From Candidatus Iainarchaeum sp. (GTDB taxonomy: Archaea; Iainarchaeota; Iainarchaeia; Iainarchaeales; JAXPJC01), in assembly GCA_016187745.1 (NCBI GenBank), contig JACPJC010000006.1, positions 115,682 to 179,681 of the forward strand: a stretch of DNA of 64,000 bases, written 5' to 3'. Below, one piece after another: positions 10,101-64,000 of this stretch. Made by a program: the position numbers and the translations under genes. Under the pieces are notes generated by a model. It was not told the origin of the DNA, searched no databases, and saw only the letters and a program-made list of their open reading frames with translations. How positions within the stretch are numbered: position 1 is the first letter of the stretch; every line of letters begins with the position of its first letter.

Positions 10101-12616
10101 ATCATAAGTACAATCTCGCAGGAGATTATAATGTTGTACTTACAGTAACTGATAATAATGGCGCAACTGATGCAAACACCGTGAGCGTAAGCATCACTTC
10201 AGGCCCGATAAGCTTCTGCCCGGGGACAAAAAGCTGGACAACGCAGGCTGATTTCAATTCAGGAAGCGATGTAAATGCTGACACTTATTCAGATCCCGGA
10301 AGCATAATTTTAACAAAAAGCGGGGAAATAGCGCCTGATGCAAACACAAAGCTGCTTATGCATTTTAATGCAAATCCGCAAACGCATTTGGGAACGGAAA
10401 TGGATTCTTCAGGAAACGGAAATAATGGAACGGTTTATACAAATGAGGGCGCAACAAACAAGGCAGTTGCAGGAAAATTCGGAAGCGCTTTGGGCTTTGA
10501 TGGCATTGATGACCGCGTATCCGTCCCGGACAGCGATTACTGGAATCTGGGTTTATATTTCACTATTGGCATGTGGGTTAAATTCCAGAGCGGAACAATA
10601 GACAATGAGCATTATTTGCTGGGCTATAATTACGGGAGCAATAACAGGAATTTCTGGGTGGCATACCAGGGGCAGCTTTCGCCGGATCAGCTGCATTTTA
10701 ATTTTGCCACTGACGGCTCAGGCGGCCACTTCGGGGGCATGAGCGTTGCATGGACGCCTAATGCAGGGCAGTGGTATAATATTGCAATTGTGAGAAATAG
10801 TGCTGATTTGAAGATGTTTATAGATGGCATGCAGATCGGCTCCACTTACAATATCGGCGCAACGAGCATGTGGGCCGGCTCAACAGCAGGCATAGAAATC
10901 GGTTCGGGGCACAATTCCCGCCATAGCGGCGAAATGGATGAAGTTGCAGTCTGGAACCGCGCGCTTTCTCCAAGCGAAGTCCTTGCGCTTTATCAGAGCG
11001 GCTCGGCATACCGCCCTTCAGGCACATGGAACGGAGTATTTGATTCAAATTCAATTGCAAGCGGCTGGAACACAATAAATTGGGGCGAGGATTTGAATTA
11101 CGGCGCTGAACTTGCAGGGGATTCCAATACAAAACTGCTTTTGCATCTGAATGAGGGTTCTGGAACAACTGCAAATGATTCAAGCGGCAATGGGAACAAT
11201 GGGGCATTGTTTAACGGCCCTATCTGGACTTCTTCAGGAAAGTTCAGGAATGCGCTGCAGTTTGATGGAACTGATGATTATGTGAAATTCTCGGCAGCAA
11301 ATATGCCTACAGGGGAAAGAACAGTTGAATTGTGGTTCTATAACACAGACACAACAGCGGTGGGGGCAAGGCAGATATTCGGATATGGGGGGAACAGCAA
11401 CAGCCCCGCATATTCTTCATTTTTGATTTACTCCTCCGCAGATAAGAAGGGAATTACTGCCCATATGCATTATCCCGGGGGCGGGATCCTGAATTATGCA
11501 GGAACTTCGCCGATGACCAATGCCTGGTATTACTTGGTGCTCACAACTGACGTGAGCGGAAGCAGGCTTTACATAAATGGAAGGCTGGTTGATTACAATG
11601 CAGTAACCCCTTCAACATATGTTTCGGGCAAAGATGGATTTGTGGGTGCAATGCCTTCAGGCAGCGGCACTGGAACCTATGTTGACCCGAATTATCCCTA
11701 TTGGAAGGGGAATATAGATGAAGTTGCAGTTTACAACGCAGCGCTGGACGCAAATAAGATACTTGAGCATTACAGGAAGGGCGCCGCAAATATAAGATTG
11801 AGGACAAGAACTGCCGCATCGCAGCTGGCATTGAGCAGCGCGGAATGGAGCAATGAGAATGAGATTGATGCGAATTCTGACATCAATGGATTGTGGCACT
11901 TCAATGAAGGAAGCGGCAGCATTGCAAGCGACTCAAGCGGAAATGGGAATAACGGAACATTGATGAATGGAGTGGCATGGGCTTCTTCTGGAAAGTTTAA
12001 GAATGCGCTGCAGTTTGATGGGGTTAATGATTATGTTAACATAATTAAATCTGATGAGTTTCATTTAGGAGCGGGTAGTTTTGCTGTTACAGCATGGGTT
12101 AACTTTGCGGGGTTAGCCGGAAATCAGAATATTCTTGCGTTTTATACCATTGCCAATCAGGCTTTGCAATTTGCTTGGAGTACAAACGTTTTAACTGTTT
12201 GGGGCGAAACAAGCACTGTTTTAAGCACATCAGGATTTTCCCCAACTCTTAACAGATGGTATCACGTTGCATTTGTAAGAAACGGGAATGCCTGGAATAT
12301 TTATGTTGATGGCACGTCATATGCCAGTGCAACTGATGCGAGAACTTTAAATTATCCGAAGGATAATATTGGGATAGGCGTTCTGCCTACGTCCTTGCAA
12401 TATTTCAACGGCAAGATAGATGAACTTGCAATTTGGAACAGGGGATTAAGCGCAGGCGAAGTGCTCGGGCTTTACAAGAGAGGCAAATATTACACGGCAG
12501 GCCCGAGCGCAATAACAAGCGATGCCAACAGGTTCATTGAGGTGCAGGCGCTCCTGGAAACTGAAAATTCCTCTTACACGCCGGTGCTGCAGGATTTGAA
12601 CATAAGCTGCTCTTAG
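7169..12616 (+). CDS. Giant pilin-anchored adhesin with five LamG domains and a PKD domain
   Basis: Class III signal KG|QAALEY, pilin domain, five LLHLNE/WHFNE...GKFG.AL.FDG...IDE.A..NRAL units, PKD motif WNFGDG...YNVVLTVTD. Confidence 0.88.
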   Translation: MPRTEKGQAALEYLMTYSWALVAIAIVIGVLIFMGILKAPSAGTCTGLEKLAYEDHTIDSNGNFILYLKNGAGMQIAINSISPGEDFSGNCSASSAIINATKDFNIVCINTGISAGQTYNGKITIEYMRRNAKHTESAACSGTAPLSGIFLVAPAPQIIEGFFNGSGNNVDLNNPDEMTLGGGGGSYAFFGSYTSDVFDANSTMDWTASISWDENAPAGTDINLQTRTSDNNVAFSAWSGYYTNPSGEAITSPNGRFIQYKANLSTTNPALTPRLLEVRMHGNPLAQSCGNLKREGSEQCDTNDLAGSNCVLLGYSSGALACKADCTFDTNGCVGATTTMLCPGSKTWTSQSDWQSGALANIDATSSPGSIKLSQPSTSGTWNIVVDSNAAPTDWNAISWSEDLNYGGELAGDANTKLLLHLNEVSGLTAADASGNGNNGTLTNGATWTSSGKFGNALGFDGINDYIDVSNESLFDFERTSPFTLSAWVKWASGTTQTLLSKQTSAGNAPGWLLIVNANGTLAMWLVNDAGAGWNLIHVDSVSSIGLGTWNHVVMTYDGSSTAAGVKLFINGNQSGTTIVTNTLSASILNNVDVWIGNRQFADIPFNGTIDEAAIWNRALGAGEILEHYKRGALNLRFRTRSAPTQGTLSSASWGGYYTESPSAIASPNNKWIEVQALLENSDANYTNYTPVLNDVSISCAGAQGNQAPFAGLGASAYSANAGSYIAFYGNTSYDPDGNIVNYAWNFGDGNAVASPANYPLGAKTLLRFDEGIDSAAGDASGNNNGGTISGAAWTSSGKFGNALAFDGVDDYVNLPQKITDAEGTISAWIKTGGDVSSAQRIYSQSTGGASSNRVAVTILSGAFRFDAGFAPGGVQLDIGNVQPNTWYHIVWTSDGSTIKGYVNGANQALTVTGGSNSGQWFSGITSNYARIGNMRYDDISGNIQYFNGTIDEVAIYNRALGAGEILALYQGGPAVVYHKYNLAGDYNVVLTVTDNNGATDANTVSVSITSGPISFCPGTKSWTTQADFNSGSDVNADTYSDPGSIILTKSGEIAPDANTKLLMHFNANPQTHLGTEMDSSGNGNNGTVYTNEGATNKAVAGKFGSALGFDGIDDRVSVPDSDYWNLGLYFTIGMWVKFQSGTIDNEHYLLGYNYGSNNRNFWVAYQGQLSPDQLHFNFATDGSGGHFGGMSVAWTPNAGQWYNIAIVRNSADLKMFIDGMQIGSTYNIGATSMWAGSTAGIEIGSGHNSRHSGEMDEVAVWNRALSPSEVLALYQSGSAYRPSGTWNGVFDSNSIASGWNTINWGEDLNYGAELAGDSNTKLLLHLNEGSGTTANDSSGNGNNGALFNGPIWTSSGKFRNALQFDGTDDYVKFSAANMPTGERTVELWFYNTDTTAVGARQIFGYGGNSNSPAYSSFLIYSSADKKGITAHMHYPGGGILNYAGTSPMTNAWYYLVLTTDVSGSRLYINGRLVDYNAVTPSTYVSGKDGFVGAMPSGSGTGTYVDPNYPYWKGNIDEVAVYNAALDANKILEHYRKGAANIRLRTRTAASQLALSSAEWSNENEIDANSDINGLWHFNEGSGSIASDSSGNGNNGTLMNGVAWASSGKFKNALQFDGVNDYVNIIKSDEFHLGAGSFAVTAWVNFAGLAGNQNILAFYTIANQALQFAWSTNVLTVWGETSTVLSTSGFSPTLNRWYHVAFVRNGNAWNIYVDGTSYASATDARTLNYPKDNIGIGVLPTSLQYFNGKIDELAIWNRGLSAGEVLGLYKRGKYYTAGPSAITSDANRFIEVQALLETENSSYTPVLQDLNISCS

Positions 12617-14043: not shown

Positions 14044-14868
14044 TCATTTCTGAATTGCCTTGTTTGCTATAATAAGCAGGGCATTTGAAAGCTTGCTGAA
14101 TTCTTCCTTTAATATCAGGTTCGTGCTGTCAAGCTTGCCTGAAACATTATCCATCTTATTTGAGAGATCTTCCTTTAATATTCTGTTTGTGTCATCCAGT
14201 TTGCCTGAAACGCTGTCCATCTTATTTGAGAGATCTTCCTTTAATATTCTGTTTGTGTCATCCAGTTTGCCTGAAACATCATCCATCTTATTTGACAAAT
14301 CTTCCCTTAATATGCGGTTTGTGCTGTCGAGCTTGCCTGAAACGCTGTCCATTTTCTTCGACAGGTCTTCCCTTAATATCTGGTTTGTGCCATCCAGCTT
14401 GCTTGAGACATTGTCCATCTTCTTTGCAAGCTTTCCTGAAAAACCGTCCATCTTATTTGACAGGCTGCCATATTTTACATCCAGCTTGCCGAAGTTCCCG
14501 TTTGTTTCTTTTCTGAAGCTATGCATCTCATCATACATTTTGTGCATATACAATGCCGCCTCATCAGCCCTCTCAGCCATTTCCCGGGTTGGCTTCCCCC
14601 TATTAATTGTAAATCTTTTAAATGTGATTTTTGTTGCAATGCTCCTCTGTTTGATATTTTCTACATTAATTGGCCAGTTTCTGATTTTGATTTTATCAAT
14701 AAATTTCTTGATTCTTGCTTTATCCCCCTGGACAACTATTTTTACGCTTTCATCAGGAAGATTCTCCGCATAGCCTTTTATGCCCAGCTCAAAGGCAGCC
14801 TGGCTCACAATGTTCCTATAGCCGACTCTCTGGACATTGCCTGTTACAATCAATTCTAGAGCGCCCAT
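14044..14868 (-). CDS. Acylphosphatase domain fused to a repetitive coiled coil
   Basis: GNVQRVGYR and GYAENLPD retain the catalytic Arg/Asn; C-terminal 22-aa repeats. Confidence 0.85.
   Translation of the reverse strand: MGALELIVTGNVQRVGYRNIVSQAAFELGIKGYAENLPDESVKIVVQGDKARIKKFIDKIKIRNWPINVENIKQRSIATKITFKRFTINRGKPTREMAERADEAALYMHKMYDEMHSFRKETNGNFGKLDVKYGSLSNKMDGFSGKLAKKMDNVSSKLDGTNQILREDLSKKMDSVSGKLDSTNRILREDLSNKMDDVSGKLDDTNRILKEDLSNKMDSVSGKLDDTNRILKEDLSNKMDNVSGKLDSTNLILKEEFSKLSNALLIIANKAIQK
14102..14431 (-). repeat. About five tandem 66-bp coding repeats
   Basis: CCATCTTATTTGA recurs at 14151, 14217 and 14283; unit SNKMDSVSGKLDDTNRILKEDL. Confidence 0.9.
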
Positions 14869-17403: not shown

Positions 17404-19308
17404 ATGGACAATGCGGTAAAGCAGATAAAGGAAATAATTGAGAAGAACCTCCCTTCGGAGGTGGAAATCACATCCATCGAGCTTGAGGGGCCGGAAGTGG
17501 CAATATACACGAAAAACCCCAGATCTTTTTTTGAGAATGAGAATTACGTTGCAAAGCTTGCGTACGAGCTGAAGAAACGCGTTAATGTGAGGAGCGACAA
17601 ATCGCTTTTAATAAATCAGGAAGAGGCGAAAAAGATTGTTGAGGGGATTGTGCCACAGGACGCGGGAATAAGGGAAATTTATTTTGATGAGGCGTTCTCC
17701 GAGGTTGTAATAGAGGCAATGAAGCCCGGACTTGTGATAGGGAAATCCGGAAGCACCTCAAAGGAAATCATACTCAAAACCGGCTGGGTGCCGAATATTC
17801 TGAGGGCGCCGACTTCGGACAGCAATACCCTGCGCGGAATAAGGCACCATCTGCACAAGTATTCTGCAGAGAGGAGAAAAATACTGCAGGCAACCGCAAA
17901 GCACATTTATAGGGAGCTTCCTGAGCAGCTGAACAACAGGGGATGGATAAAGCTTGATGCATTGGGGGGCTTCAGGGAAGTCGGAAGGAGCTGCGTTCTT
18001 ATTGCAACTGCAAACACAAAAGTAATGCTTGACTGCGGGATAAATGTAGCTTCAAACGATGACCCCTATCCTTACCTTGATTCGCTGAATTTTCCCTTAA
18101 GCGAACTGGACGCTGTAATAATAAGCCATGCACATCTTGACCACTCGGGCTTTTTGCCATATCTTTTCAAATTAGGATACAGGGGCCCTGTGTACTGCAC
18201 TGCCCCAACGCGCGATTTGATGACGCTGCTGCAGTTTGATTCCATTGATGTGCTTGTGAAGGAAGGGAGGACCCCCCCTTATTCCGAAGCAGATGTGAAG
18301 GAAATGGTAAAATACTGCATTCCCCGCGATTATAGGGAAGTAACGGACATTGCGCCGGATATGCGCCTGACTTTGCACAATGCGGCGCACATTCTCGGAA
18401 GCGCCTCAGTACATTTGCATATAGGGGAGGGGGCGCACAACTTTGTTTATAGCGCTGACATGAAATACGGCTTCACAAGGCTGTTTGACAATCTGGACAT
18501 GCATTACCCGAGGCTTGAGACCCTGCTTATTGAAAGCACATACGGGGGAAGAAACGACATTCATCCCCTGAGGCAGGAATCCGAGGAAAGGATTGTGAAA
18601 ATCATAAGGGAAACTGTCCTCAATAAGGGAAATGTCCTCATTCCAGTATTTGCAGTTGGGCGCGGGCAGGAAATAATGCTTGTGCTTGAGGACGCATACA
18701 GGAGAGGAATGCTCGAGGCGAAGGTCTATATTGATGGCATGACAAAGGAGGCAAGCGCAATCCATACAGCGTATCCGGAGTATTTGCGCAATACTGTGCA
18801 GAGAAGAGTGCTGCAGAATGATTCGCCGTTTACCTCGCAGCTTTTCCAAGTGGCTCCGGAAGCAAGCGAGAGGGCGGCCCTTCTTGCGGAGGGCGGCGCG
18901 ATAATTGTCGCTTCAAGCGGAATGCTTACAGGAGGGCCTTCGCTGAGATATTTCTACCAGATGGCCGAGGACCCGAAAAACTGCATGATTTTCGTTGGAT
19001 ACCAGGGGGAGGGCGCCTTGGGAAGGAAACTGCAGGGGGGGATAAAAATGCTGCCTGTTCCCGCGGGAAACGGAAGGGTAAAGGCACTCAATGTAAATAT
19101 GCGCGTTGAGACTGTTGAGGGGTTTTCAGGGCATTCGGACAGGCTGCAGCTGATGAATTACATCCGCATGCTCAAGCCGATGCCCAAGCGCATACTTGTT
19201 GACCACGGGGAAAAGGAAACCACGATTGATTTTTCAAGGAGCGTTGCAATGAAATTCAGGATCAACACAACCGCTCCGCGCAATCTGGACAGCGTTAGGC
19301 TGAGATGA
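17404..19308 (+). CDS. fttA: Beta-CASP ribonuclease aCPSF1 (FttA) with KH domains
   Basis: EGPEVAIY, KPGLVIGK, GGFREVGRS, SHAHLDHSG, ESTYG, GFSGHSD. Confidence 0.95.
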   Translation: MDNAVKQIKEIIEKNLPSEVEITSIELEGPEVAIYTKNPRSFFENENYVAKLAYELKKRVNVRSDKSLLINQEEAKKIVEGIVPQDAGIREIYFDEAFSEVVIEAMKPGLVIGKSGSTSKEIILKTGWVPNILRAPTSDSNTLRGIRHHLHKYSAERRKILQATAKHIYRELPEQLNNRGWIKLDALGGFREVGRSCVLIATANTKVMLDCGINVASNDDPYPYLDSLNFPLSELDAVIISHAHLDHSGFLPYLFKLGYRGPVYCTAPTRDLMTLLQFDSIDVLVKEGRTPPYSEADVKEMVKYCIPRDYREVTDIAPDMRLTLHNAAHILGSASVHLHIGEGAHNFVYSADMKYGFTRLFDNLDMHYPRLETLLIESTYGGRNDIHPLRQESEERIVKIIRETVLNKGNVLIPVFAVGRGQEIMLVLEDAYRRGMLEAKVYIDGMTKEASAIHTAYPEYLRNTVQRRVLQNDSPFTSQLFQVAPEASERAALLAEGGAIIVASSGMLTGGPSLRYFYQMAEDPKNCMIFVGYQGEGALGRKLQGGIKMLPVPAGNGRVKALNVNMRVETVEGFSGHSDRLQLMNYIRMLKPMPKRILVDHGEKETTIDFSRSVAMKFRINTTAPRNLDSVRLR

Positions 19309-19368: not shown

Positions 19369-21321
19369 ATGAAAAGGCGCGGATTTGCCCTTGGGGAAAT
19401 TGCATTTGTCGTACTGATAGTCCTGGGGGTGCTGTTTGTGGCTTTTTTGGTCGCGCCGGAGCCGGAGGAAGGGCCATCGGTTCCAATTGCCAAATTTGAA
19501 TCCTGCGGCGCAATAACCGCGGCATTCAAGGAAAATGCGCAGAACTTCAGGGGCGGCATAATTTATGAAATGGGCGGAGTAATGCCCGTGATGAGTTCCG
19601 CAACAGGGGGCGCAAAGGACCAGGGCGCTGCGAGCTACTCAACAACAAATGTGCAGGTGGCAGGCGTTGATGAGGCGGACATTGTGAAAAATGACGGGAA
19701 ATATATCTATGTGGTTTCGGGAAACAAACTGATTATTGCAGATGCATATCCTGCTGAAAGCGCGGAAATTCTTTCCTCAACAGAACTGGGGGAAAACATA
19801 ACCCCGCAGGAGATGTTCATTGGAGAGGATAGCGTGCTGGTTTTTGCAAATAATTATGTGCAGCAATACACCAGGCAGATGGAAATTGGGGGGGATGTTA
19901 TAATGCCCGGCTTCAGCACAACAATCGCGCAGCTGTGGGACGTTTCAGACAGGGAAAACCCGATATTGGAGAAGAGCGCGGAATTCGAGGGAAGCTACTT
20001 GACTTCAAGGAAAATAGGCAGCAATGCTTACTTTGTAATAAACAGCAATCCATATTATTACTGGCTTTATGAGGAAACTGTCAATGATGAAATTACCATC
20101 CCTAAGTACAGGGAACTGGGCGCGGAAGAGCTGGATTCCGGGAAGGAAATTGAATTTGAGCCGGTTGCAAAATGCGGGGAAATTGCGTATTTCGAGCCAA
20201 TACAGGCAAGCGCATTCATAACAATCGCATCAATGAACATTGATGATTTTGATGCCGAAGTGAAAAAGCAGACAATTGTGGGATCGGGGCAGAATGTTTA
20301 TGCCTCGCTTGATGCGCTTTACCTTGCAGAAGTGAATTACAATTATGGCTTTGCAATCCCCTTCATAGGGGATGTTATGCCCCCTGAGAACCCTGAGGAG
20401 ACAATTATACATAAGTTTGCATTGAAGGACGGCGATGCGTCATATTCCGGCTTTATGGAAGCCCCAGGGCATATTCTGAACCAGTTCTCGATGGACGAAT
20501 TCAATGGGTATTTCAGGATTGCAACAACAAAGGGCGAAGTGTGGAGCGGAAACTCAACAAACAATATTTATGTGTTTAACAGCGACTTGAACATGGCGGG
20601 AAAGCTTGAAGAGCTTGCGCCGGGGGAGAAAATCTATTCGGCGCGCTTCATGGGGGAAAAGGCATATCTGGTAACTTTCAAGAAGGTTGACCCGTTATTT
20701 GTAATAGATTTGAGCAATCCGGAGAAGCCTGAAGTTCTGGGCAAGCTGAAGATTCCGGGGTATTCGGATTATTTGCATCCGATTGATGAAACGCACATAA
20801 TAGGATTGGGGAAGGAGGCTCTTGAGGCGGATGAGGGGGATTTCGCATGGTACCAGGGGATTAAGATTGCGATATTTGATGTTTCAGATGTGGAAAACCC
20901 TAAGGAAATGTATAAAACAGCCATTGGGGACCGGGGAACAGATTCCTATGCGCTTCATGACCATAAGGCATTCCTCTATGATAGGGGAAAGAATCTGCTT
21001 GTAATTCCAATTCTCCTTGCTGAAATAAACGAGGCGCAGTATCCTGAGGGGGTGGAAAAAAACACATATGGGGATTACACGTTCCAGGGCGCTTATGTGT
21101 ATAACCTGACGCTTGAGAACGGCTTTGAGCTTAAGGGAAGGATAACGCACCTGGATGCGGATGATGAAAGCCTGCAAAAGTCTGGCTACTATTATGACAG
21201 CACAAACTCGATAAAAAGGGCGCTTTACATTGATGATGCGCTCTACACAATCTCAGATGCGAAGATACTTGCAAATTCATTGAATGACCTTTCACAGATA
21301 AGCGAGCTGAAGATTGCATAA
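19369..21321 (+). CDS. Secreted beta-propeller protein (Beta_propel/COG4880 type)
   Basis: YSTTNVQVAGVDEADIVKNDG, LNQFSMDE, VTFKKVDPLFVIDL, LKIPGYSDYLHP. Confidence 0.9.
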   Translation: MKRRGFALGEIAFVVLIVLGVLFVAFLVAPEPEEGPSVPIAKFESCGAITAAFKENAQNFRGGIIYEMGGVMPVMSSATGGAKDQGAASYSTTNVQVAGVDEADIVKNDGKYIYVVSGNKLIIADAYPAESAEILSSTELGENITPQEMFIGEDSVLVFANNYVQQYTRQMEIGGDVIMPGFSTTIAQLWDVSDRENPILEKSAEFEGSYLTSRKIGSNAYFVINSNPYYYWLYEETVNDEITIPKYRELGAEELDSGKEIEFEPVAKCGEIAYFEPIQASAFITIASMNIDDFDAEVKKQTIVGSGQNVYASLDALYLAEVNYNYGFAIPFIGDVMPPENPEETIIHKFALKDGDASYSGFMEAPGHILNQFSMDEFNGYFRIATTKGEVWSGNSTNNIYVFNSDLNMAGKLEELAPGEKIYSARFMGEKAYLVTFKKVDPLFVIDLSNPEKPEVLGKLKIPGYSDYLHPIDETHIIGLGKEALEADEGDFAWYQGIKIAIFDVSDVENPKEMYKTAIGDRGTDSYALHDHKAFLYDRGKNLLVIPILLAEINEAQYPEGVEKNTYGDYTFQGAYVYNLTLENGFELKGRITHLDADDESLQKSGYYYDSTNSIKRALYIDDALYTISDAKILANSLNDLSQISELKIA

Positions 21322-42152: not shown

Positions 42153-43574
42153 ATGCGGCAGAAAGGGCAGGAAGCGGTTGAATACCTTGCGGTAATAATA
42201 GTGATGCTGCTTATTGTCGGGATTATTTTTGTGTATTCGCTTGACCTTTCCCAGCGCACCGTAATAACGGAGCAGGCAAGGAATGCCGTAAAAACCCTCG
42301 CGAATTCCGCGGACCTTGTTTATGCCTCCGGCCCGGGAAGCAAGATATATGCGGAAATAGAGCTGCCTGCAAACCTTGAGGGGGAAATCCTCGGGGACAA
42401 TGAAATAGGCTATAAGGTCAGAATAGGGGATGCACTTACCGACATATATGAGGTGACAAAGGCGCAGGTTACCGGGGAGCTTCCAATAGAGGCGGGAAAG
42501 CATTCAGTTGCGCTTGAGATGCTTGACAGCGGGTTTGTTAGGATAGGCGCAGGATTGATATTGAGCCCGAACAAGATTGCAAAAACAATTCTTCCGGGAA
42601 ACAGCTCAAGCGAAACCCTTACCGCATGGAATTCAACTTCCGCTTCCCTTTCCGGAATAACAAACTCGAAATCCGGGGGCATTGATGCGTTTACAAGCTT
42701 GGGGGCAATATCCTCAACGCTTGATGCAAATGCCTCGGACAGCTTTGACGCGCTATTTAACATTCCCTCGGGAACCTCCTCATCCACTTACTCCGGATAT
42801 GTTGCTGTCGATTCAAATTCCGGGCAGGGGGACAGGGCCCTGGTGCAGATATTCGTGCCGCAGGTCCTTACAAACATCAATGTGAAGGCCTATTCCGACT
42901 CAAATTATTCCTCGCATTCAGTCAATTTCGGAATCGGCTCAACTGTTTATTTTGAGGTTCTTGCCTATGACCAGGGCGCTTCGCCTGTTTCGCTTTCAGA
43001 CCTTAATGTTTTTGTGAAAAACCCTTCCGGAAGCGATGTGAATGTGTTCAGGAACTTAAGCGCGCCGAACGGGAGATACCTGGGGACTTTCAAGGTTCCG
43101 TGCGATGGCGCTTCCGGAAGCTGGACAATACTCGCAAACGGAAAGGCGTATTCCGCAGTGAGCGACTCAAATAATTTCAATGTAACAACAGTGGAGCAGC
43201 AGAGCTTCTTCGAGTTTGACTGGCTTACCGCGAGCTTTGCCTCCGCAGGGAAACATCTCAATGATTGGACTATCCGCAATATTGGCTGCGGAAGCATAAC
43301 AATAACAGACATGAATGTCGCGTGGTTCAATGATGCGGACAATGCAAAGCTGAAGAAAATAAGATTCAGCAATTCGGAAGTGTGGAGCGGCACATCTTCA
43401 GGAAACAGCTTCCTGAACATAGATGATTATTCCATAGGCGCCGGCATAGAGATAAGCACAAACAACAAGCTTGAATTTGATGATGAAGTGAATGACAATT
43501 CAGAGCAGTTCATCCTTACATTCAAATTCGGGGACGGAAGCACATACAAGACCCCAACATACTCTGCAGGCTGA
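42153..43574 (+). CDS. Large minor pilin-like protein
   Basis: KG|QEAVEY class III signal, ADLVYASGPGS motif, beta-rich C-terminus. Confidence 0.82.
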   Translation: MRQKGQEAVEYLAVIIVMLLIVGIIFVYSLDLSQRTVITEQARNAVKTLANSADLVYASGPGSKIYAEIELPANLEGEILGDNEIGYKVRIGDALTDIYEVTKAQVTGELPIEAGKHSVALEMLDSGFVRIGAGLILSPNKIAKTILPGNSSSETLTAWNSTSASLSGITNSKSGGIDAFTSLGAISSTLDANASDSFDALFNIPSGTSSSTYSGYVAVDSNSGQGDRALVQIFVPQVLTNINVKAYSDSNYSSHSVNFGIGSTVYFEVLAYDQGASPVSLSDLNVFVKNPSGSDVNVFRNLSAPNGRYLGTFKVPCDGASGSWTILANGKAYSAVSDSNNFNVTTVEQQSFFEFDWLTASFASAGKHLNDWTIRNIGCGSITITDMNVAWFNDADNAKLKKIRFSNSEVWSGTSSGNSFLNIDDYSIGAGIEISTNNKLEFDDEVNDNSEQFILTFKFGDGSTYKTPTYSAG

Positions 43575-43584
43575 TGGGAATTTT

Positions 43585-43977
43585 ATGAAGGGCAGCATAG
43601 GGATTGAAACTATTGCGGTTGTAATGCTCCTGCTTGCGATGTTCGTAATCATAAATCTTTCAATAATAAACAACACGGATTTGGTAAATGCGCTGTCCGA
43701 GCAGTTCAGGCTGCAGGCAGAATGCAAGAAGGTTGCGGGCATAATAAGCGGAATTTACAGCGCGGGGGACGGCGCAAAATGGCAGGGGGAAATTGACAGG
43801 AATGCCGCAGTTTATTCCGATTACATTGACTTGTGGGATGGGAATTCCGGGTTCCCTGAACTTAAAAGCGTTTACTGCGCATTTTATGCGGATCTTAATG
43901 AAAGCGATTTCAATCTGGCAAGCGGGGGCATAATTGTTGAAAACAGCAGCGGGAAGGTTGTGATAAAAAATGCCTGA
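43585..43977 (+). CDS. Minor pilin-like protein
   Basis: MKG|SIGIE plus hydrophobic helix. Confidence 0.75.
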   Translation: MKGSIGIETIAVVMLLLAMFVIINLSIINNTDLVNALSEQFRLQAECKKVAGIISGIYSAGDGAKWQGEIDRNAAVYSDYIDLWDGNSGFPELKSVYCAFYADLNESDFNLASGGIIVENSSGKVVIKNA

Positions 43978-44458
43978 ATTCGGGAATTCCAGAGGGCAGG
44001 TGGTTTCATATGACCTGATGATTGCAATATTCATATTCCTGCTTGTTTTTGCATTTGCGCTGAGCGTTTGGCAGAATTCCATTGGCGCAATTGCAGGGGA
44101 GAAAATCCTTTATGAAATGAAGAATTCCGCAGTGCAGATTTCAAACCAGCTTGTAATGACCCCGGGAGTTCCGAGCAACTGGCATCTTAGCGGGGATGCG
44201 AACCTTTATGGCTTCGCATTGTCAAGGCGCGCGCTTTCGCTGCAGAAGCTAAATGCATTCAAGGCGCTGGATTACAATTCAGCAAAGGGCAGAATGGGAA
44301 TTGCCGATTATGACTTCTACATAAAGATTGAGCAGGACCTGAACAAGGCCTATGAGGCAGGAAGCATAAAAAGCGGCGCAGAGATTGCAATAAATTCATC
44401 AAGGGTTGTGAGCTACAATGGAAAAAATGCGATATTTTATTTCACGCTCTACAAATAA
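43970..44458 (+). CDS. Minor pilin-like protein
   Basis: RG|QVVSYD plus hydrophobic helix; TPGVPSNW motif. Confidence 0.78.
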   Translation: MPEFGNSRGQVVSYDLMIAIFIFLLVFAFALSVWQNSIGAIAGEKILYEMKNSAVQISNQLVMTPGVPSNWHLSGDANLYGFALSRRALSLQKLNAFKALDYNSAKGRMGIADYDFYIKIEQDLNKAYEAGSIKSGAEIAINSSRVVSYNGKNAIFYFTLYK

Positions 44459-45012: not shown

Positions 45013-45861
45013 ATGGGGGGCAGGGGAATTATATTAACGCTGACAATACTGCTGTTCAGCCTTGCGGTTATAGGGCTGAGCTCGCAATTGAGGGAAAACA
45101 CAAGGCTGCTTGAGCAGAATGCGCAGTTTGTTTCCGCAATAGACAGGGTCGCATACAAATTTGAGAATGTGCAGGACAACATATATGACATAATGCTCAA
45201 CGTAGGGAACATGGATTTTGATTCAAATGCCGAAGCGATATGGTTTTATGAGAGGCTGCCCGAGAAAACAAAGAAGGACACTTACCAGATTGACCTGGAT
45301 GCGTACAGGGAATTTGTCTTCCTGCATTCTGATGCGCTTGATGTGAACATAAATTCAGCAACTGTGGACGTGAGGGATTTGCTCGTTTCCCCCTATGACA
45401 TAAACTACACGCACTCGAAGGACAAGGGGAAATACTACAATGAAATTTCATATTCCCCTGAAAGCCTTAATTTTGAGGGCTATTTCATTGACATTACCCT
45501 GCAGAACCAGGATTACAACGGGATAATAAAAAACATGAAAACGTCTCCAACCAACAACATAAATCTTGATTTGGTAATAAGGAACAGCACAAAAATTACT
45601 GAGAATGAGCTGCACTACACTGATGTGGACCCTACAAAAACCAGCACAATAACAGTAAAGACCTCCGGCGTGGCGCAGAAGGACATTGAGATAACAATAA
45701 CTCCCACAGGAGTCCTTACAATAACCAACAACAATCAGGTCCCAATAGACATAAATTCGGGAATAAATTTCGGGGCGCTTGCGACTGAAATGCCAATAGT
45801 GGAGCTTCCTGACAATATGGTTGTGGTGGGGAGCGCGGACTATAATGTAGAAAAGAGGTAG
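45013..45861 (+). CDS. Pilus-associated exported protein
   Basis: RG|IIL plus hydrophobic helix, within the pilin operon. Confidence 0.72.
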   Translation: MGGRGIILTLTILLFSLAVIGLSSQLRENTRLLEQNAQFVSAIDRVAYKFENVQDNIYDIMLNVGNMDFDSNAEAIWFYERLPEKTKKDTYQIDLDAYREFVFLHSDALDVNINSATVDVRDLLVSPYDINYTHSKDKGKYYNEISYSPESLNFEGYFIDITLQNQDYNGIIKNMKTSPTNNINLDLVIRNSTKITENELHYTDVDPTKTSTITVKTSGVAQKDIEITITPTGVLTITNNNQVPIDINSGINFGALATEMPIVELPDNMVVVGSADYNVEKR

Positions 45862-49139: not shown

Positions 49140-49141
49140 AA

Positions 49142-50029: not shown

Positions 50030-50035
50030 TGAAGA

Positions 50036-51665: not shown

Positions 51666-53450
51666 TCACGAATAGGTGATTACAACGCTGTTTATTGTTG
51701 GGGTTGAGGCTGCGGCATTCGTGTCCAGGAAGGCCCTGTACTGCGCCCATTGCTTATTGTCAAGGGCTGAATTTATTGCGCTGTTCTGCGTTGTGTAGTA
51801 GTCCCCTGCGCCTGTCGGGCCGAGCCATTGCGCGGAATTCAGGTCCTGCAGGGAATTCCCGGAACGCATCTGGAATTTCAATCCTGTTCCTGTTGGAAGC
51901 GAAGCATTCCAGGTTATTGTGCGCAAATCCCTTGGAGAGGCCAAATCAAACGGCGCTGAAGCAAAGGTGCCTGATGGGGAATAGGTTGGAACGTCCATAT
52001 GGATATTGTCAAGCCATATTTTGCTGTAGCCTCCCGAACAGGCATATGCGAAGAAATAAAGCTTAAGCGTGCTTCCAAGGGTTATGCCTGTGGGATTTCC
52101 CTGATAGTCAAATGCGGGATTCAGTGAAACTGAATTGAAAGAAGGAAAATCAACATCCTGCTGCCTGTAGAGAAGCGAGCTCCCTGCCTGAACATAAATT
52201 GAGCCGTTCGCATTGTTGTCTGCCTTTATGTCAAATGTAATGCTGCCTGTTATTTCCTTGTCCATGCTTGCAATGCTCCCCGCGCAGTGGCTTTGCGGCG
52301 TGCAGCAGTTTGTGTACAAATACAAAGAGCCCAGGGGATTGCCCTGCGCGTTCTCATAAGCGCATGCATGCTGGGGGGCATAGCCATCGTAAATGTAATT
52401 GCAGCTGCTTGCCCAGTAATTATTGAAATCCGCAGTGGAACTGAAGTCCCCTCCCGGAAGCGCTATTGAAACAGGGGATGAGGCTGAAAGCTTAAGCGAA
52501 TTGCCCTGGATCTGCATATTCTGCAGGGTTCCTGAATTGAATTCCGCATAGGTGTCATCGCTTATGCTGAAGGCGCCCGCAGCCGGAGCCTGCTGCCCGG
52601 TCCCCTCTATTGAAATGTCATAAAGCACGGGGGTGTTGTTTGAATTGAATGTTGTAAGGTTTATCCTGTATTGTATGTATCTTCCATTTGGGGAGGTTAT
52701 TGCGCTTCCTGAGGGATTTGAATATGCCCCTGACCATGCGCTCCAGTTCACATTGTCATCTGAGGTGCGCGTTTGCAGGGTTATTGATGTTCCCTCCGAA
52801 AGCAGGGAATTCCATGAGGCCCTGCTCCAGCTGATTTTTTTATTCGCATCATATATGTTTGAGGTAAGCGTTCCGTATGCGGGATAGCTTGCAATCGTAA
52901 GAAGGCGCAGCTCCCCCGGAACTGCTGCATTCACATCGGCTGCGGAGCTGTAATCCCCTGAGCTCCAGTCGCTTGAAAGCCATATTGTAAGGGGCAGCAC
53001 TGCAACCTCGGAGGCGGTTCCCGTGCAGGTTATTTTTTCTATGTGCCTTGCATATTTTCCCCTCACATAGCTTACTGTGATTTCGCCTTTGTACTGTTCC
53101 CCTTTTTTTATGTTCGTCTGGCCGAAAATTATGAAATCATTCCCTGCGGCAACAACATCCGCGGAAGTTGCAGCAGTTCCCCCGAGCTCATCTGAAAAGG
53201 CCACTGAAATGCCCTTTATTGCGAGCCCTGTTCCGTTGGAGAGATAAAGCGCGAAATTGCCGTTTGAATCCATCGTATGATCGGCATAGCCCAACTTCTC
53301 ATAGCCGGTGCAGATTCCCGCAATTGGCGCGCGCAGAATCCCCATGAAAATCAGTACGCCTACAACTATCGCTATTACGACCAGTGCCCAGGAATAGGTC
53401 ATCATGTACTCTAGCGCTGCTTGCCCTTTTTCCATTGACATGTTTGCCAT
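51666..53450 (-). CDS. Pilin fused to extracellular beta domains
   Basis: KG|QAALEY, shared pilin domain, and the LQTRTSDDN..WSAWS...YIQY domain also seen in the 7169 gene. Confidence 0.85.
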   Translation of the reverse strand: MANMSMEKGQAALEYMMTYSWALVVIAIVVGVLIFMGILRAPIAGICTGYEKLGYADHTMDSNGNFALYLSNGTGLAIKGISVAFSDELGGTAATSADVVAAGNDFIIFGQTNIKKGEQYKGEITVSYVRGKYARHIEKITCTGTASEVAVLPLTIWLSSDWSSGDYSSAADVNAAVPGELRLLTIASYPAYGTLTSNIYDANKKISWSRASWNSLLSEGTSITLQTRTSDDNVNWSAWSGAYSNPSGSAITSPNGRYIQYRINLTTFNSNNTPVLYDISIEGTGQQAPAAGAFSISDDTYAEFNSGTLQNMQIQGNSLKLSASSPVSIALPGGDFSSTADFNNYWASSCNYIYDGYAPQHACAYENAQGNPLGSLYLYTNCCTPQSHCAGSIASMDKEITGSITFDIKADNNANGSIYVQAGSSLLYRQQDVDFPSFNSVSLNPAFDYQGNPTGITLGSTLKLYFFAYACSGGYSKIWLDNIHMDVPTYSPSGTFASAPFDLASPRDLRTITWNASLPTGTGLKFQMRSGNSLQDLNSAQWLGPTGAGDYYTTQNSAINSALDNKQWAQYRAFLDTNAAASTPTINSVVITYS

Positions 53451-56513: not shown

Positions 56514-56515
56514 TC

Positions 56516-57226
56516 ATGCCCAAAAAGAAGCAGCAGACAAAGGGCGAAGAGGAAGTTGAAAGGGCGATAAAGCTTGCAAAGCCCTCAGGCGAAATGGAAA
56601 CATACGGGGTCAGCAAGGAGATTTCTGACATTTTAAGCCCGAAGCACAGGATTGCATTGCAGCTGCAGGGCGAGCTTGATGGGAGCCTTGAAAGCTACAT
56701 GGTGCTGATGCTCATAAAGCCTGAGCTTTACACAACAACAAGCATAGAGCTTGTGAAATACTACACGCAGAATCTCAGGCTTCCGGGGATTTACCTCACG
56801 CTGAACAAGCCCTATGAGGATTTGGTTAAAAACCTTGAGGATGAGGGAATTGACACGGAAAAGATTTATTTCATTGACTGCATAAGCAAATTAACGGGAA
56901 GGCGGACGGAAGGATTGGGGAAGAACTGCATATTTGTTGATTCGCCGCAGGCGCTTGCGCAGATTACGACAGCGCTCCAGAAGCTTCTCAGCATCGGAAA
57001 TGAGGAGGAGCAGAGATTCATGATTTTTGATTCAATAAGCACGCTGCTTGTTTATTATGACAAGGAGCCCGTGGGGAAATTCACGCACTTCATGATAGGG
57101 ATGATAAGGAAATGGAAACTGAAGGGTGTGCTTCTCATGGTGGAAGAGGGCGACAAGAGGGGCGCAACAGAGATGATGAGCCTTTTCTGCGACAAGGTTG
57201 TCAATATCAACCATTCGGAGCTTTAG
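56516..57226 (+). CDS. Inactive RecA/KaiC-fold protein, paralog of the 55134 gene
   Basis: GIYLTLNKPY...FIDCIS...FDSISTLLVY...FCDKVV; no Walker A. Confidence 0.78.
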   Translation: MPKKKQQTKGEEEVERAIKLAKPSGEMETYGVSKEISDILSPKHRIALQLQGELDGSLESYMVLMLIKPELYTTTSIELVKYYTQNLRLPGIYLTLNKPYEDLVKNLEDEGIDTEKIYFIDCISKLTGRRTEGLGKNCIFVDSPQALAQITTALQKLLSIGNEEEQRFMIFDSISTLLVYYDKEPVGKFTHFMIGMIRKWKLKGVLLMVEEGDKRGATEMMSLFCDKVVNINHSEL

Positions 57227-60376: not shown

Positions 60377-63300
60377 ATGCAGATGGGCACGGAGTGGCCA
60401 GTTGCTTTGGTTCTTATAGCGGTCAGCATAATTGCGGTTTTTGCATTTGTCCTTTCCCCTAATGCTTTTGTCGCGCTTTTTTCCGGAGGGGCGCAGCAGG
60501 CCGAAGGCCTTGCCTTCAATGTGCAAGGCGGAATCGCCTCTGACAGGATTGCTTCCGGGCAGAACGTAAAAGAGCAGATTCTGCACGCTGACGGCATCTA
60601 TGCCTCTCTTGCGCTGGATGCTTCCGCAAATGCAATTTTGGACATGAATTATTCCGCAGTGCTGCCCGAAGGCTCCGCGCCCATTTCGGTTTTTGTCAGG
60701 CTGCAGGGATTTGCGGTGCGCAATATTCTCCCAAGCACCGAGAAAGACCCGAGCAACCTCTCATTTGAGTGGGGTGATTTCAGCTACTGGAATTTGGCAA
60801 AGGAGGGAAAGAAAAGCGATGCGGGCATATGGAGCTATAACCAAGGGGCATATGATGCATATGTTTCCGCGTTTTTAATAACTTCCGGCGGCGCGAAAAA
60901 CAGGGCAGAACTGAAGCACAAGTTCATAACCGTAAATAAAAACGATAAAATAAGATTCTACTGGAATTCCTACCACTATGATTCCGGCTGCGGGCTTTTT
61001 GTCAATGGAACGCAGATATATCCGCCTAAGGAAAACTCATACGGCTTTGGATACATTGCAATCAGCCCGAAAATTGCCGGCGCGCTTGCAATCAGCGCCG
61101 AAGGGACAGGGAAGGATGATACAGGATACTGCACCTTCTATGCGGATGACTTTTCAATAAATGGAACGAAGGAAATAAGGCAGGCGTTCAAGACACTTGC
61201 GGACATTGAAGTTTGGAACGGCCTTGAGTACAAAGAAATCCCTGCGTGCAGGAACCTTGAATTGAAAGAAGAAGCAAGCACGCTTTCATGCGATGTTTCC
61301 TCTGCCCTTAAAACCGCTGAGAGTCTGCAGAATGCGCAAATAAGGGCAGTTATACATAATGGGTATGAGAATATTACCGCAAAAATAGATTATGTATATT
61401 TGGATTTGAACTACTCCAAGGAAGCGGAAATAACCCCGAAAAAGCCTGAAAAGCCGGTTCAGGAAAAGCGCCTTGGCCTGAAGCTGAAAAAGCACAAGGA
61501 TGTCTTCAGGCATGATGAGAATATACTCATTGACGCAAATTTCGGGGACCTGGACACTGGGGAGAAGCTGGAAGCTGCAATTTCCGCGCAGCTCATAACC
61601 CCCGAAAACAGGATTGAGGATCTGAATGCCGATGAGATTGAAGTGGAGGGAATAGGAAAATACAGGCTCAAATTGGATTCGAAGCGCTATTTCGCCCCCG
61701 GGCTTTATGTGCTTAGGGTAAAGGCAAAATACGGGATTTCAAACTACACATCAGAGGAGCGCTTTTATTGGGGCGTGCTTGCAATAAACACAGGCAAGAG
61801 CATTTATCTTCCCAACGAAACCGCAAGGCTCTCAATTGGCGTTCTGGATGAGAACGGAAGCGTTGAGTGTAATGCCGAACTGGAGCTTGCAATCACTTCC
61901 CCCTCCGGGGAAACAACACTCCTCAGGACAGCCGATGGGACAATAAGCAAATCCGCGGAATGCAGCGAGAAGCTTGAGCAGACATATGCTCCTGATTATT
62001 ATGCGGAATACAATGCGAAAGGCATTGGCACATATGCAATGGCGCTTACTGCAACAACGCCTGATGGGACATATGCCATTGAGGACTCATTTGAAGTAAA
62101 GGCTGCAGTTGATTTTGAAGTTGAACGGAGAACAGCAACAAGGATTCTCCCAATATTTGCATATGATGTGAATCTGCATATCAAGGCTAATGCAGCATAT
62201 TCGGGGGAGATTGCTGAATTTGTTCCGGCAGAATTTGAGATTCTGCCTCAGGAAGGATTGCTTGTTACAAAACAGGGAAATGAGAAAAGGATTGCATGGA
62301 ATGTTGCGCTTGCAAAGGATGAGGAAATTGATTTGCATTACGCATATGATGCGCCAGACATATGGCCAAGGGTAGCTGAAATTGGAGAATTGCAGGTGGG
62401 AAGCTTCAGGGAAGCAAGGCGCTGGATGATAGCGATTGATGCTGTGAAGGATGTAACCGGATGCACTCTCAACGCGCCCTCTTCCGACCCAAATGTTGCG
62501 GAAGGCGCTACATTCTCATGGCAGGCAACTGCGGTAACCTCAGGCTCAGGCAGCAATCCTGATGTAACATACACTGCGCAGTCCTGCAACAATTCAGGCT
62601 GTTCTGCTGATGTGAATACAATTCCAACTGATACGACCGTTACTTCAATGGACTGGGTTTCCGCTTCCTCCCCTGATGCAAATCCTGTTACGCTTGCTGC
62701 AAACGTATCTCAGGATGGAACAGTTAAGGGAAGGAGCGGGGGAACCTACTATGTCAGGTGCAAGATTGTGGGAGGAACAACATGCTCCGGAGGCTGCTAT
62801 TCCACAGCACAGGTGGTTACAGTTACAGCGCCTCCTTCAAACAGGCCTGTTGATGCGAATACTGTGAAAATTGACGGCAATCCCGACAATGCCGCACTGC
62901 CTTCATTCAATTATGATACTGATGGGAACCTCACAATTGATTTCAATGTGTTTGATTTGGATTATAACGGAATTTTCAGGGGCAGTGGGAGGCTTGATGC
63001 GAATGTTGATTACAGGGATACAAATGCAAACGGCAAATCATACCGCATAATTACTGACCTGAATCTTACAAGAAGCAAGACAAATGGCAGCAATGCGGGG
63101 TTGTACTGCGATGACCTGAACTTTGCGGGGGGAAAGGACAAGAACCGCTATGGGGTTACATGCCACTGGGACTGGAATACCTATCGCATAACAGACAGGA
63201 ATGTTTTCATTGATGTGAATGTAACTGACAATAACGGGAGCACTGACATAAATTCAAGCGATTATAATTTCAGGGTTCTGACTGCTGCACAGCCTGTTGA

Positions 63301-64000
63301 GAACAGAACTATTGATGTTAATATTGCAAGGCCAAACGGCGGGGAGATTGTCGGAGTGAGGGATGGAAATTACCGCATTGATTTCAATGTGAGCGACAAG
63401 GACTGTAACGGGATATTCTGGTGCAGGGGAAGATTGGATGCGAATATTGACTATAATGTAAGCGGCGGTTGGGCAAGGGTTGTTACGGATTTGAATTTGC
63501 TGGCAACTGCAACTGCGGGAAGCAATAAGGGAATATATTGTGATGACTTGAATTTTGCTGGCTCAAAGGACCAGAATAAGCAAGTAACATGCCATTATGA
63601 TTGGAACCTTGCAGTGTGGAGGGAGCCGAGCGTGGATAGCAGGGTTGATGTGAATGTTACTGACAATAATGGAAGCACTGATGCAAACAGAAGTGCGAAT
63701 TTCTTCAGGCTGCATAACTGGCTGGTTTCAAATTCTGCAACAGCAATTGCCTACAACAATCAAAGGAATCTAGTGAGGAATGCTGATGGGAACATTTATC
63801 TTGTTTATGAGGCGAACCCGCCAGATGATAGCTCAAAAAAAGAAATATGGTTTGCCAAGAGCGATAACAATGGAAGCACCTGGAGCACGCCAGCAAATGT
63901 AAGCGATACCAATAACAGAAGCTCAACAAGCCCTGCAATTGACATAAATTCAACTGGCGGATTGCAAATGGTGTGGATAGAGGAAATCATTGCAAGCGGA
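60377..64000 (+). CDS. Giant surface protein, 3'-truncated by the window edge (absent from the ORF track)
   Basis: Manual translation from ATG 60377 (MQMGTEWPVALVLIAVSII...) appears open to the end; TM anchor, WGVLAINTGKSIYLP motif, two D-x-N-rich repeats, Asp-box AKSDNNGSTW. Confidence 0.85.
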   Translation, partial: MQMGTEWPVALVLIAVSIIAVFAFVLSPNAFVALFSGGAQQAEGLAFNVQGGIASDRIASGQNVKEQILHADGIYASLALDASANAILDMNYSAVLPEGSAPISVFVRLQGFAVRNILPSTEKDPSNLSFEWGDFSYWNLAKEGKKSDAGIWSYNQGAYDAYVSAFLITSGGAKNRAELKHKFITVNKNDKIRFYWNSYHYDSGCGLFVNGTQIYPPKENSYGFGYIAISPKIAGALAISAEGTGKDDTGYCTFYADDFSINGTKEIRQAFKTLADIEVWNGLEYKEIPACRNLELKEEASTLSCDVSSALKTAESLQNAQIRAVIHNGYENITAKIDYVYLDLNYSKEAEITPKKPEKPVQEKRLGLKLKKHKDVFRHDENILIDANFGDLDTGEKLEAAISAQLITPENRIEDLNADEIEVEGIGKYRLKLDSKRYFAPGLYVLRVKAKYGISNYTSEERFYWGVLAINTGKSIYLPNETARLSIGVLDENGSVECNAELELAITSPSGETTLLRTADGTISKSAECSEKLEQTYAPDYYAEYNAKGIGTYAMALTATTPDGTYAIEDSFEVKAAVDFEVERRTATRILPIFAYDVNLHIKANAAYSGEIAEFVPAEFEILPQEGLLVTKQGNEKRIAWNVALAKDEEIDLHYAYDAPDIWPRVAEIGELQVGSFREARRWMIAIDAVKDVTGCTLNAPSSDPNVAEGATFSWQATAVTSGSGSNPDVTYTAQSCNNSGCSADVNTIPTDTTVTSMDWVSASSPDANPVTLAANVSQDGTVKGRSGGTYYVRCKIVGGTTCSGGCYSTAQVVTVTAPPSNRPVDANTVKIDGNPDNAALPSFNYDTDGNLTIDFNVFDLDYNGIFRGSGRLDANVDYRDTNANGKSYRIITDLNLTRSKTNGSNAGLYCDDLNFAGGKDKNRYGVTCHWDWNTYRITDRNVFIDVNVTDNNGSTDINSSDYNFRVLTAAQPVENRTIDVNIARPNGGEIVGVRDGNYRIDFNVSDKDCNGIFWCRGRLDANIDYNVSGGWARVVTDLNLLATATAGSNKGIYCDDLNFAGSKDQNKQVTCHYDWNLAVWREPSVDSRVDVNVTDNNGSTDANRSANFFRLHNWLVSNSATAIAYNNQRNLVRNADGNIYLVYEANPPDDSSKKEIWFAKSDNNGSTWSTPANVSDTNNRSSTSPAIDINSTGGLQMVWIEEIIASG

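Follow-up and report, generated by a model that had tools for sequence, protein, structure and literature searches.

N-glycosylation by PglB of Campylobacter uses the extended sequon D/E-X-N-X-S/T, in which the 'minus-two rule' places an acidic residue at position -2, and R331 of ClPglB is described as pairing with the -2 Asp (PMC4894442). The canonical archaeal system acts on N-X-S/T through AglB (PMC8342417, PMC8241124); the motifs WWDYG and DK/MI make up a Ser/Thr pocket in the solved enzyme (PMC8342417), and AglB-dependent glycosylation at three non-canonical sites is reported for Haloferax volcanii (PMC8241124). The general O-glycosylation system of Bacteroidetes acts on another short motif, D-(S/T)-(A/I/L/V/M/T) (PMC8550257), and the surface layer (S-layer) protein of a cultured Micrarchaeon is described as positive for periodic acid-Schiff staining (bioRxiv 10.1101/2021.04.28.441871). 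Here, we describe a strong bias for the spaced pair D-x-N, with Asn two residues after Asp, in exported proteins encoded by a 64,000-nt stretch of a Candidatus Iainarchaeum sp. genome (hereafter the window), and by the whole genome of this DPANN archaeon (964 kb in 10 contigs, completeness 91%).

Genes were called crudely over the whole genome, as the longest non-overlapping open reading frames (ORFs; 1017 ORFs, 91% coding), and were sorted by hydrophobicity windows, again a crude split, into 667 cytoplasmic, 155 exported (N-terminal anchor or signal), 142 multi-pass and 53 other proteins. With the expected number computed from each protein's own composition, the exported class contains 378 D-x-N for 158.0 expected (2.39-fold), compared with 307 for 323.9 in the cytoplasmic class. 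Asp is followed by Asn at +2 in 14.3% of cases in exported proteins vs 4.2% in cytoplasmic ones, and the window by itself displays the same behavior, with 95 sites for 33.8 expected in its 21 exported proteins and 11 for 17.5 in its 36 cytoplasmic ones. D-x-N ranks first among the 378 spaced pairs of the exported class, the runner-up reaching 1.49, and per-protein shuffles of this class (n = 300) yielded a mean of 159.7 (standard deviation 12) and a maximum of 203. The bias is strict in direction and spacing: N-x-D (0.97), D-x-D (0.92), N-x-N (0.89) and E-x-N (0.77), adjacent DN (0.78), D-xx-N and D-xxx-N (1.07 each) all remained near or below expectation. These control pairs, spacings and shuffles led us to reject local D/N-rich composition as the source. 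The canonical N-x-S/T was not enriched in the exported proteins of this genome (421/408, 1.03-fold). An earlier note on the window, made by reading the letters, had placed the enrichment in exported proteins, in contrast to three cytoplasmic ones, and the genome-wide counts bear this out. Its manual counts were all reproduced (12 of the 22 Asp residues of a 454-aa exported protein, 16 sites in a 154-aa module, 32 in the adhesin, those of the pilins, and 0, 1 and 1 in Cdc6, Hel308 and aCPSF1), the excess persists under the composition correction that it had suggested, and the comparison of D-x-N with N-x-S/T, also its suggestion, came out at 2.39 vs 1.03.

At the DNA level, GAYNNNAAY is found 323 times in the reading frame, 3 and 20 times in the other two frames and 30 times on the reverse strand, and codon use inside the motif is that of the host genes. 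Selection therefore acts on the protein, and a DNA-level motif such as a methylation or restriction site was rejected on the basis of the frame restriction. Taken individually, 12 of 350 non-cytoplasmic proteins are significant for D-x-N (p < 0.001) vs 1 of 667 cytoplasmic ones; the same count gave none for N-x-D, S-x-N and N-x-S/T, and one per class for D-x-S. Few proteins account for the excess: of the 155 exported ones, 21 are rich, about half of the excess comes from the top 3, and removal of the top 25 leaves 62 sites for 67.9 expected (0.91).

The rich proteins are unrelated in Pfam content (Laminin_G_3 with PKD, Ig-like Big_3/Y_Y_Y, S_layer_C, thioredoxin/DsbA, MG2, BNR, or none) and carry different export signals, Sec-type, pilin-type or lipobox. 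The proposal of the earlier note that the motif acts on unrelated folds is supported by its presence in LamG, PKD, Ig-like, S-layer, thioredoxin/DsbA and pilin-like proteins and in lipoprotein linkers. In the latter, D-x-N forms runs in a low-complexity stretch after the lipobox Cys, with 26 sites in the first 60 residues for 3.4 expected. Three lipoproteins start instead with a dockerin/EF-hand-like DLNKDGKVS. These three are paralogous (G000:C2:81011-82777 (-), C6:11301-12908 (-) and C5:93924-95705 (+)), with V-T-Y-D-[EK]-C-D-L-N-K-D-G-K-V-S after the lipobox Cys followed by a Cys-rich G-K-C-G-D-G-[IV]-C-G, and one of them has a GH39-like domain. The richest protein of the genome (1424 aa) holds 72 sites, irregularly spaced, in its membrane-distal 1020 residues and 3 in the membrane-proximal 400. 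In the 454-aa exported protein of the window, 3 of the 12 sites extend to N-x-S/T; its five homologs are all at least 79% identical, with D and N invariant at 11 of the 12 sites and the x residue varying at 5. Horizontal transfer of the exported genes that are not rich was considered and rejected, their GC content being no different (0.455 vs 0.467). Separately, two proteins with an acylphosphatase domain followed by 4-6 tandem units bearing K-[MT]-D-[GRK]-N-F-K-x-L (G000:C3:96450-97136 (-) and G000:C2:65649-66254 (+)), to which the window ORFs 14044-14868 (-) and 38403-39257 (-) are related, are the only cytoplasmic-looking ones with a D-x-N excess; its source is the repeat unit and not scattered sites.

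Three protein families were compared. The first is an Ig-like module common to the richest proteins, with six D-x-N columns. In module-bearing proteins, D-x-N is enriched 4.64-fold inside the module and 3.66-fold outside (931/254.4); a single common domain as the source of the bias was rejected because of this outside excess and of that found in unrelated families. Members of the module family without the D or the N have in its place T, S, Q, R, E, Y, K or A, ordinary residues of exposed strands, and a PKD strand of the window adhesin reads GDYNV where the solved ColH/ColG PKD domains have GTYTV, GEYTV or GTYNV; the motif therefore gives the impression of having been superimposed on existing folds. 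A 1989-aa protein (G000:C2:69979-75948 (+)) with four Ig-like modules of the same family is depleted in D-x-N (0 in the modules, 6 vs 12.3 expected elsewhere) and constitutes an internal negative example beside its rich paralogs.

The second family is an exported DsbA-like protein of thioredoxin fold. In the external parts of its 19 relatives, 65 sites were counted for 24.4 expected (2.7-fold), with a maximum of 41 over 2000 shuffles, and the controls were N-x-D 1.23, D-x-D 0.58, N-x-N 0.65 and E-x-N 1.36. The alignment of these relatives with the own copy (20 sequences) places 75 sites in 52 columns, of which 43 are singletons, some of them possibly misaligned at a mean identity of 23%. As judged from this alignment, the density of sites is kept while their positions turn over, as is the case with glycosylation sequons.

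The S-layer family is the third. D-x-N exceeds 1.3-fold in 91 of the 112 hits that are 500 aa or longer and is at or below 0.7 in 10. When 56 sequences were aligned, no other spaced pair kept its positions as well as D-x-N, whose flanks are unconserved, as they are around the sites of this genome; D and N appear or vanish jointly in the alignment columns, either alone being rare (odds ratios 20-1300). Conservation of sites is thus mixed, from 18 columns in the S-layer family and six in the Ig-like module to the singletons of the DsbA-like family. Mapping D-x-N onto N-x-S/T positions of homologs, as the earlier note had suggested, did not reveal an exchange of one for the other: three low-D-x-N members of the S-layer family have no consistent N-x-S/T at the conserved columns, and a sequon swap at homologous S-layer positions was rejected.

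This genome is the sole member of its family in the species collection used, its nearest 40 genomes all belong to the same order, and the named relatives of the window proteins are metagenome-assembled genomes of 'Candidatus Diapherotrites', 'Iainarchaeum' and 'Micrarchaeota'. The order appears very deep, since GC content within it spans 24.6% (genome G002, family f3) to 51.8% (genome G015) and tblastn in G002 found matches for just 354 of the 1017 proteins of this genome; for the same reason a presence/absence comparison between the two genomes was very noisy and was dropped. Within the order, 112 of 196 genomes encode rich proteins resembling L003, a 955-aa Ig-like protein, but in f3 just 1 of 22 genomes does; elsewhere in the phylum, 0 of 19 genomes have one. 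The 29 best L003-like ORFs, from 11 families, together contain 755 D-x-N where 179.7 are expected, and for most of them N-x-D is near or below 1. Of the L003 homologs, 31 of 34 range from 3.0- to 8.5-fold, and the three most distant hits (P0039, P0041 and P0042), bacterial-looking with identical Pfam domains, are at 0.84-1.17. In G002, of which 800 of 840 kb were sampled, the exported class has no bias (263/258.8, 1.02), nor does the S-layer ortholog (2/4.9), and N-x-S/T is enriched in exported proteins (794/658.9, 1.20; cytoplasmic 1.02) of this AT-rich genome. The bias is thus lineage-specific, as the earlier note had supposed of the modification system behind it, and it is a trait of the whole order, carried by some of the exported proteins; this genome is the strong end of that trait and not its sole carrier. 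Literature searches on archaeal sequons and AglB, N-glycosylation, Diapherotrites S-layers and PglB R331 yielded no account of a D-x-N bias or sequon.

The context of the sites was then considered at the level of sequence and of predicted structure. In the order-wide L003-like set, Pro is absent from x (0 of 1034 sites) and reduced to 0.51-fold at N+1; in the 21 rich proteins of this genome it is at 0.22-fold at x and 0.33-fold at N+1, N-P-S/T not being depleted (0.93). The S-layer family contains one conserved D-P-N column. After the putative modified position, the 15 richest proteins are most enriched in Tyr, Val, Ala, Ile and Phe (1.35- to 2.1-fold). Ser/Thr at N+2 follows 29.1% of D-x-N sites vs 19.2% of other Asn in the L003-like set (odds ratio 1.73), an enrichment and not a requirement, and 23.3% vs 20.0% in the S-layer set. 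Asp is depleted at N+1 and N+2, to 0.13- and 0.41-fold over the 1034 order-wide sites and, in the S-layer set, to 0.35- and 0.68-fold. AlphaFold2, given a 40-sequence alignment, models the 154-aa module as an Ig-like sandwich (predicted local distance difference test (pLDDT) score 88); of its 16 sites, 7 are mid-strand, 3 are where strands begin and 6 are in loops. The model of the S-layer protein (pLDDT 78.6), whose best fold match is the DUF1608 S-layer domain of Methanosarcina, has its sites at strand starts and hairpin turns, the three best-conserved ones lying in low-confidence loops. These models were read for secondary structure only; in them, no single local structure goes with D-x-N, which is seen mid-strand, where strands begin, in hairpins and in low-confidence loops. 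The PDB yielded no sequence relatives of the richest proteins.

What could read such a motif? We propose that, in this DPANN order of Iainarchaeota type, selection at the protein level acts on D-x-N in a subset of extracytoplasmic proteins, where the motif would overlie solvent-exposed positions of unrelated folds that existed before it, as well as unstructured linkers. Strict direction and spacing, the lack of a Glu, D-x-D or N-x-D excess, the unrelated folds, the linkers, the turnover and the exclusion of Pro argue for a reader of the extended chain and not for a symmetric side-chain dyad; most likely, this reader would be an enzyme that meets the unfolded chain after export. Since the motif is centered on Asn, specific to exported proteins and preceded by Asp at -2, it points to N-glycosylation of the PglB 'minus-two' kind. 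Our favored, tentative reading, to which we give a little less than an even chance, is therefore that D-x-N is a short linear motif read post-export, most probably as an N-glycosylation acceptor with Asp at -2: the Asn would be modified, the modification would be a glycan and the single AglB of the genome would be the likeliest enzyme, using the -2 Asp as binding determinant with little or no need for a +2 Ser/Thr. In a bolder form, which we regard as possible though doubtful, the whole order would use D-x-N as its main acceptor tag for surface modification; at its boldest, AglB would read the -2 Asp instead of the +2 hydroxyl. N-x-S/T and D/E-x-N-x-S/T would then be joined by a third N-glycosylation sequon, with which the surfaces of S-layer, pilin-like, adhesin and lipoprotein molecules would be coated as densely as one site per 14 residues, as in the first 1020 residues of the richest protein. 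To our knowledge, all N-glycosylation systems described need the +2 Ser/Thr.

The proposed system resembles that of PglB in several respects: an acidic residue exactly at -2 of Asn, exported targets of any fold, a single-subunit enzyme of the STT3 family and, in the order-wide set though only faintly over all exported sites of this genome, exclusion of Pro at x. It differs in that only Asp, and not Glu, seems to be used, that a +2 Ser/Thr would not be required in this genome, and that the enzyme would be an archaeal AglB with a DK-type Lys. It shares with the canonical archaeal system one AglB carrying WWDxG, a DK-type Lys and a TIXE-like motif, and typical targets, namely S-layer protein, pilin-like proteins and lipoproteins, but departs from it because N-x-S/T is not enriched where D-x-N is, and most D-x-N sites have no +2 hydroxyl. 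Like Bacteroidetes O-glycosylation, it would rely on a minimal three-residue motif led by Asp in many exported proteins, and the residues enriched after the putative modified position (Tyr, Val, Ala, Ile and Phe) are a further likeness; however, the acceptor there is the Ser/Thr right after Asp and not an Asn two residues on, and no PglL/Wzy_C-type transferase was found.

The genome encodes one STT3/AglB homolog (a single PF02516 match above cut-off), of 763 aa, at G000:C6:16108-18396 (L001:424-2715 (-)). It carries WWDEG and the TIXE-like TVGE, as well as a Lys that aligns with that of the DK motif in A. fulgidus AglB-S1, and a profile of the order's AglBs matches A. fulgidus AglB-L with an E value of 1e-21; the alignment of this profile with PglB (3rce, 5ogl) is very weak. 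The x of WWDxG varies in the order (E/Y/Q/K/V/N), unrelated to the bias, and all 29 AglBs that cover the region just past the TIXE-like motif (30 aligned, the G040 fragment falling short) keep a Lys 11 residues beyond its GE, as does the D-x-N-negative G002. Adaptation of AglB was rejected on these two grounds, and the earlier note's suggestion of AglB/STT3 paralogs with altered WWDxG/DK motifs found no counterpart in this genome. As a feature of its own, this AglB contains an internal duplication of a membrane segment of about 55 residues, visible as two near-identical G-I-Y-N-L-I...R-G-I-E-A-Q-x-I-K stretches, around which the AglBs of relatives align in two pieces (query 123-308 and 365-763).

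Several of our results weigh against glycosylation of D-x-N. First, the enzyme gives no sign of it: AglB looks canonical, because the Ser/Thr-pocket motifs are kept, and no examined AglB residue separates D-x-N-rich genomes from G002. Nor was a second oligosaccharyltransferase found, there being a single STT3 and no Wzy_C; the one PMT_2 glycosyltransferase-C (GT-C) gene is present in 40 of the 196 genomes of the order, in a pattern unlike that of the motif (0/13 in family f27, 0/23 in f23), and a second oligosaccharyltransferase was rejected. Second, the S-layer excess lies wholly in the 18 conserved columns (340 of 637 sites), the remainder being near chance, a pattern that would fit fixed structural sites as well as conserved glycosites. 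Third, over all 378 exported sites, Pro depletion is weak, with 8 at x for 14.2 expected (p 0.1) and 7 at N+1 (p 0.057), so that the depletion of Pro at x that the earlier note had asked about is observed order-wide and in the rich proteins and is faint over the exported class as a whole. In the rich proteins of this genome, Ser/Thr at +2 is not enriched (59/323 D-x-N, 18.3%, vs 17.9% of other Asn), and a single conserved D-L-N-Y-S column and the periodicity of beta-strands (S+T at N-4 1.24-fold) account for part of the N+2 signal. Fourth, some clearly exported proteins have no bias: the Beta_propel protein of the window (Table 1), a 2827-aa macroglobulin-like protein (17/13.2) and a 1358-aa protein (1/2.8). 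Last, the exported classes of two relatives, each sampled over 400 kb, are near 1, with 44/42.8 (1.03) in G016 and 57/51.5 (1.11) in G015, the closest S-layer relative; both do hold D-x-N-rich S-layer, DsbA-like or L003-like proteins elsewhere in the genome. The earlier note's proposal of a surface modification system reading D-x-N is supported in part, by the sequon-like behavior of the motif, directional, selected at the protein level, turning over and present in linkers, and finds no correlate in an enzyme.

The conserved S-layer columns raise the question of whether D-x-N instead serves to hold an ion. An Asp at i and an Asn at i+2 on the same face of a strand or loop would form a structural cation- or water-binding dyad for Ca2+, Mg2+ or another ion, which would stiffen and cross-link the envelope proteins of S-layer-bearing cells; we judge this unlikely, though it is the main rival reading. 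The calcium motifs of tandem beta-sandwich adhesins, DxNDN of cadherins and DxNxDG of EF-hands and dockerins, are likewise found in extracellular beta-sandwich domains and have Asp at i and Asn at i+2, and three lipoproteins here do begin with the DLNKDGKVS described above. D and N behave as a unit in the S-layer columns, the three best-conserved of these sites lie in loops poorly modeled by AlphaFold2, as ion sites often do, and the 7 mid-strand sites of the module are flanked by hydrophobic residues and therefore on the exposed face of the sheet. However, the depletion of Asp at N+1 and N+2 does not fit the cadherin or EF-hand forms, and D-x-D, N-x-D and E-x-N, expected to bind ions as well or better, are not enriched. 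Moreover, a dyad leaves the strict direction across unrelated folds unexplained, along with the runs in low-complexity lipoprotein linkers; sites turn over freely in the thioredoxin-fold family and shift position between orthologs, lost sites are replaced by Y, K, R, V or T and not by ligand-like residues, and a Foldseek search with the module model returned generic Ig-like matches only, with no ion-binding analog. On the calcium-binding turns conserved in other phyla that the earlier note had raised as a counter-explanation, the known calcium forms are unfit, the L003 hits from outside the lineage have no bias, and the S-layer columns would fit fixed structural sites and glycosites alike.

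A reader other than an oligosaccharyltransferase is less probable still, and we consider it quite unlikely. Under this explanation, D-x-N is a linear motif for another modification of Asn or Asp (hydroxylation, a deamidation-driven cross-link, methylation), for a chaperone or sorting factor, or for protection against a host or environmental protease. It predicts identical sequon-like statistics, and it agrees with an AglB that has no adaptation and with the dispensable +2 Ser/Thr of this genome, but no candidate enzyme or partner was identified (no proteome-wide co-occurrence analysis was made, and the G002 comparison was too noisy), and the literature searched contains no known modification using D-x-N. 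That the excess has no function and stems from composition, internal repeats or the descent of a few paralogous domains, as its concentration in the top proteins and the common Ig-like module with its six columns might suggest, is very improbable, and the controls go most of the way to refuting it: no shuffle attained the observed count, the control pairs remained close to 1, individually significant proteins are nearly all non-cytoplasmic, and the excess extends outside the module to unrelated families and to single-copy proteins such as that at 12613-13977.

If glycosylation at Asn with Asp at -2 is correct, sequon prediction would change for a large uncultured group, the dense surface coat built by tiny symbionts would be explained, and glyco-engineering would gain a new acceptor tag and enzyme. 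If ion binding is correct instead, it would represent a general, directional metal-stapling of unrelated folds, also without precedent. Either way, D-x-N is a simple and strong statistic that provides a computational marker of the surface-exposed proteome in this order.

The gene content of the window is archaeal, with Cdc6, a Hel308-type helicase, aCPSF1/FttA, proteasome and NAC genes, next to a type IV pilus-like locus and numerous exported proteins. The features that bear on the bias are collected in Table 1; one further pilin-like ORF of the window holds 2 D-x-N for 0.8 expected.

Table 1 Window features and their D-x-N counts (positions are those of the window, except in the first row, where they are those of the contig)
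Feature	Position	Strand	D-x-N, observed vs expected
Window, 64,000 nt of the 964-kb genome	G000:C5:115682-179681
Cdc6/Orc1, cytoplasmic control	433..1677	+	0 vs 1.0
Hel308-type helicase, cytoplasmic control	2058..4253	-	1 vs 1.2
Adhesin with pilin signal, 1821 aa, five Laminin_G_3 and two PKD	7151..12616	+	32 vs 9.3
Exported protein, 454 aa, N-terminal anchor, no Pfam family	12613..13977	-	12 vs 1.7
aCPSF1/FttA, cytoplasmic control	17404..19308	+	1 vs 1.5
Beta_propel (PF09826) exported protein without bias	19369..21321	+	1 vs 2.2
Pilin-like exported protein, MG2-like domain	42153..43574	+	7 vs 2.2
Small pilin-like exported ORF	43492..43977	+	5 vs 0.7
Small pilin-like exported ORF	43970..44458	+	3 vs 0.4
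Exported ORF, 282 aa, adjoining type IV pilus-like ATPase and platform genes	45013..45861	+	6 vs 2.2
Pilin-signal protein, 594 aa, with the common N-terminal D-H-T-x-D-S-N-G-N-F	51666..53450	-	8 vs 2.2
Large exported protein, running past the contig end	60299..64000	+	43 vs 7.3 in the 1234 aa present
Ig-like D-x-N-rich module, copy 1	62837..63298	+	16 per 154 aa
Ig-like D-x-N-rich module, copy 2	63299..63745	+

In the pilus-like locus (42153-51016 and 51666-53450), several pilin-like ORFs accompany a T2SSE ATPase and two T2SSF platform genes. Across the genome, K-G-Q-A-A-L-E-Y is common to at least four proteins with a pilin signal, which some 40 residues on also have D-H-T-x-D-S-N-G-N-F, followed by a conserved N-G-T sequon. 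A 1414-aa lipobox protein with no Pfam family (24664-28908 (-)) is unusually poor in both motifs among exported proteins, with only 2 N-x-S/T and no excess of D-x-N (6/3.8). Beside the pilus-like locus, three neighboring genes encode KaiC/DUF7504-type ATPases (55134-57226 (+)).

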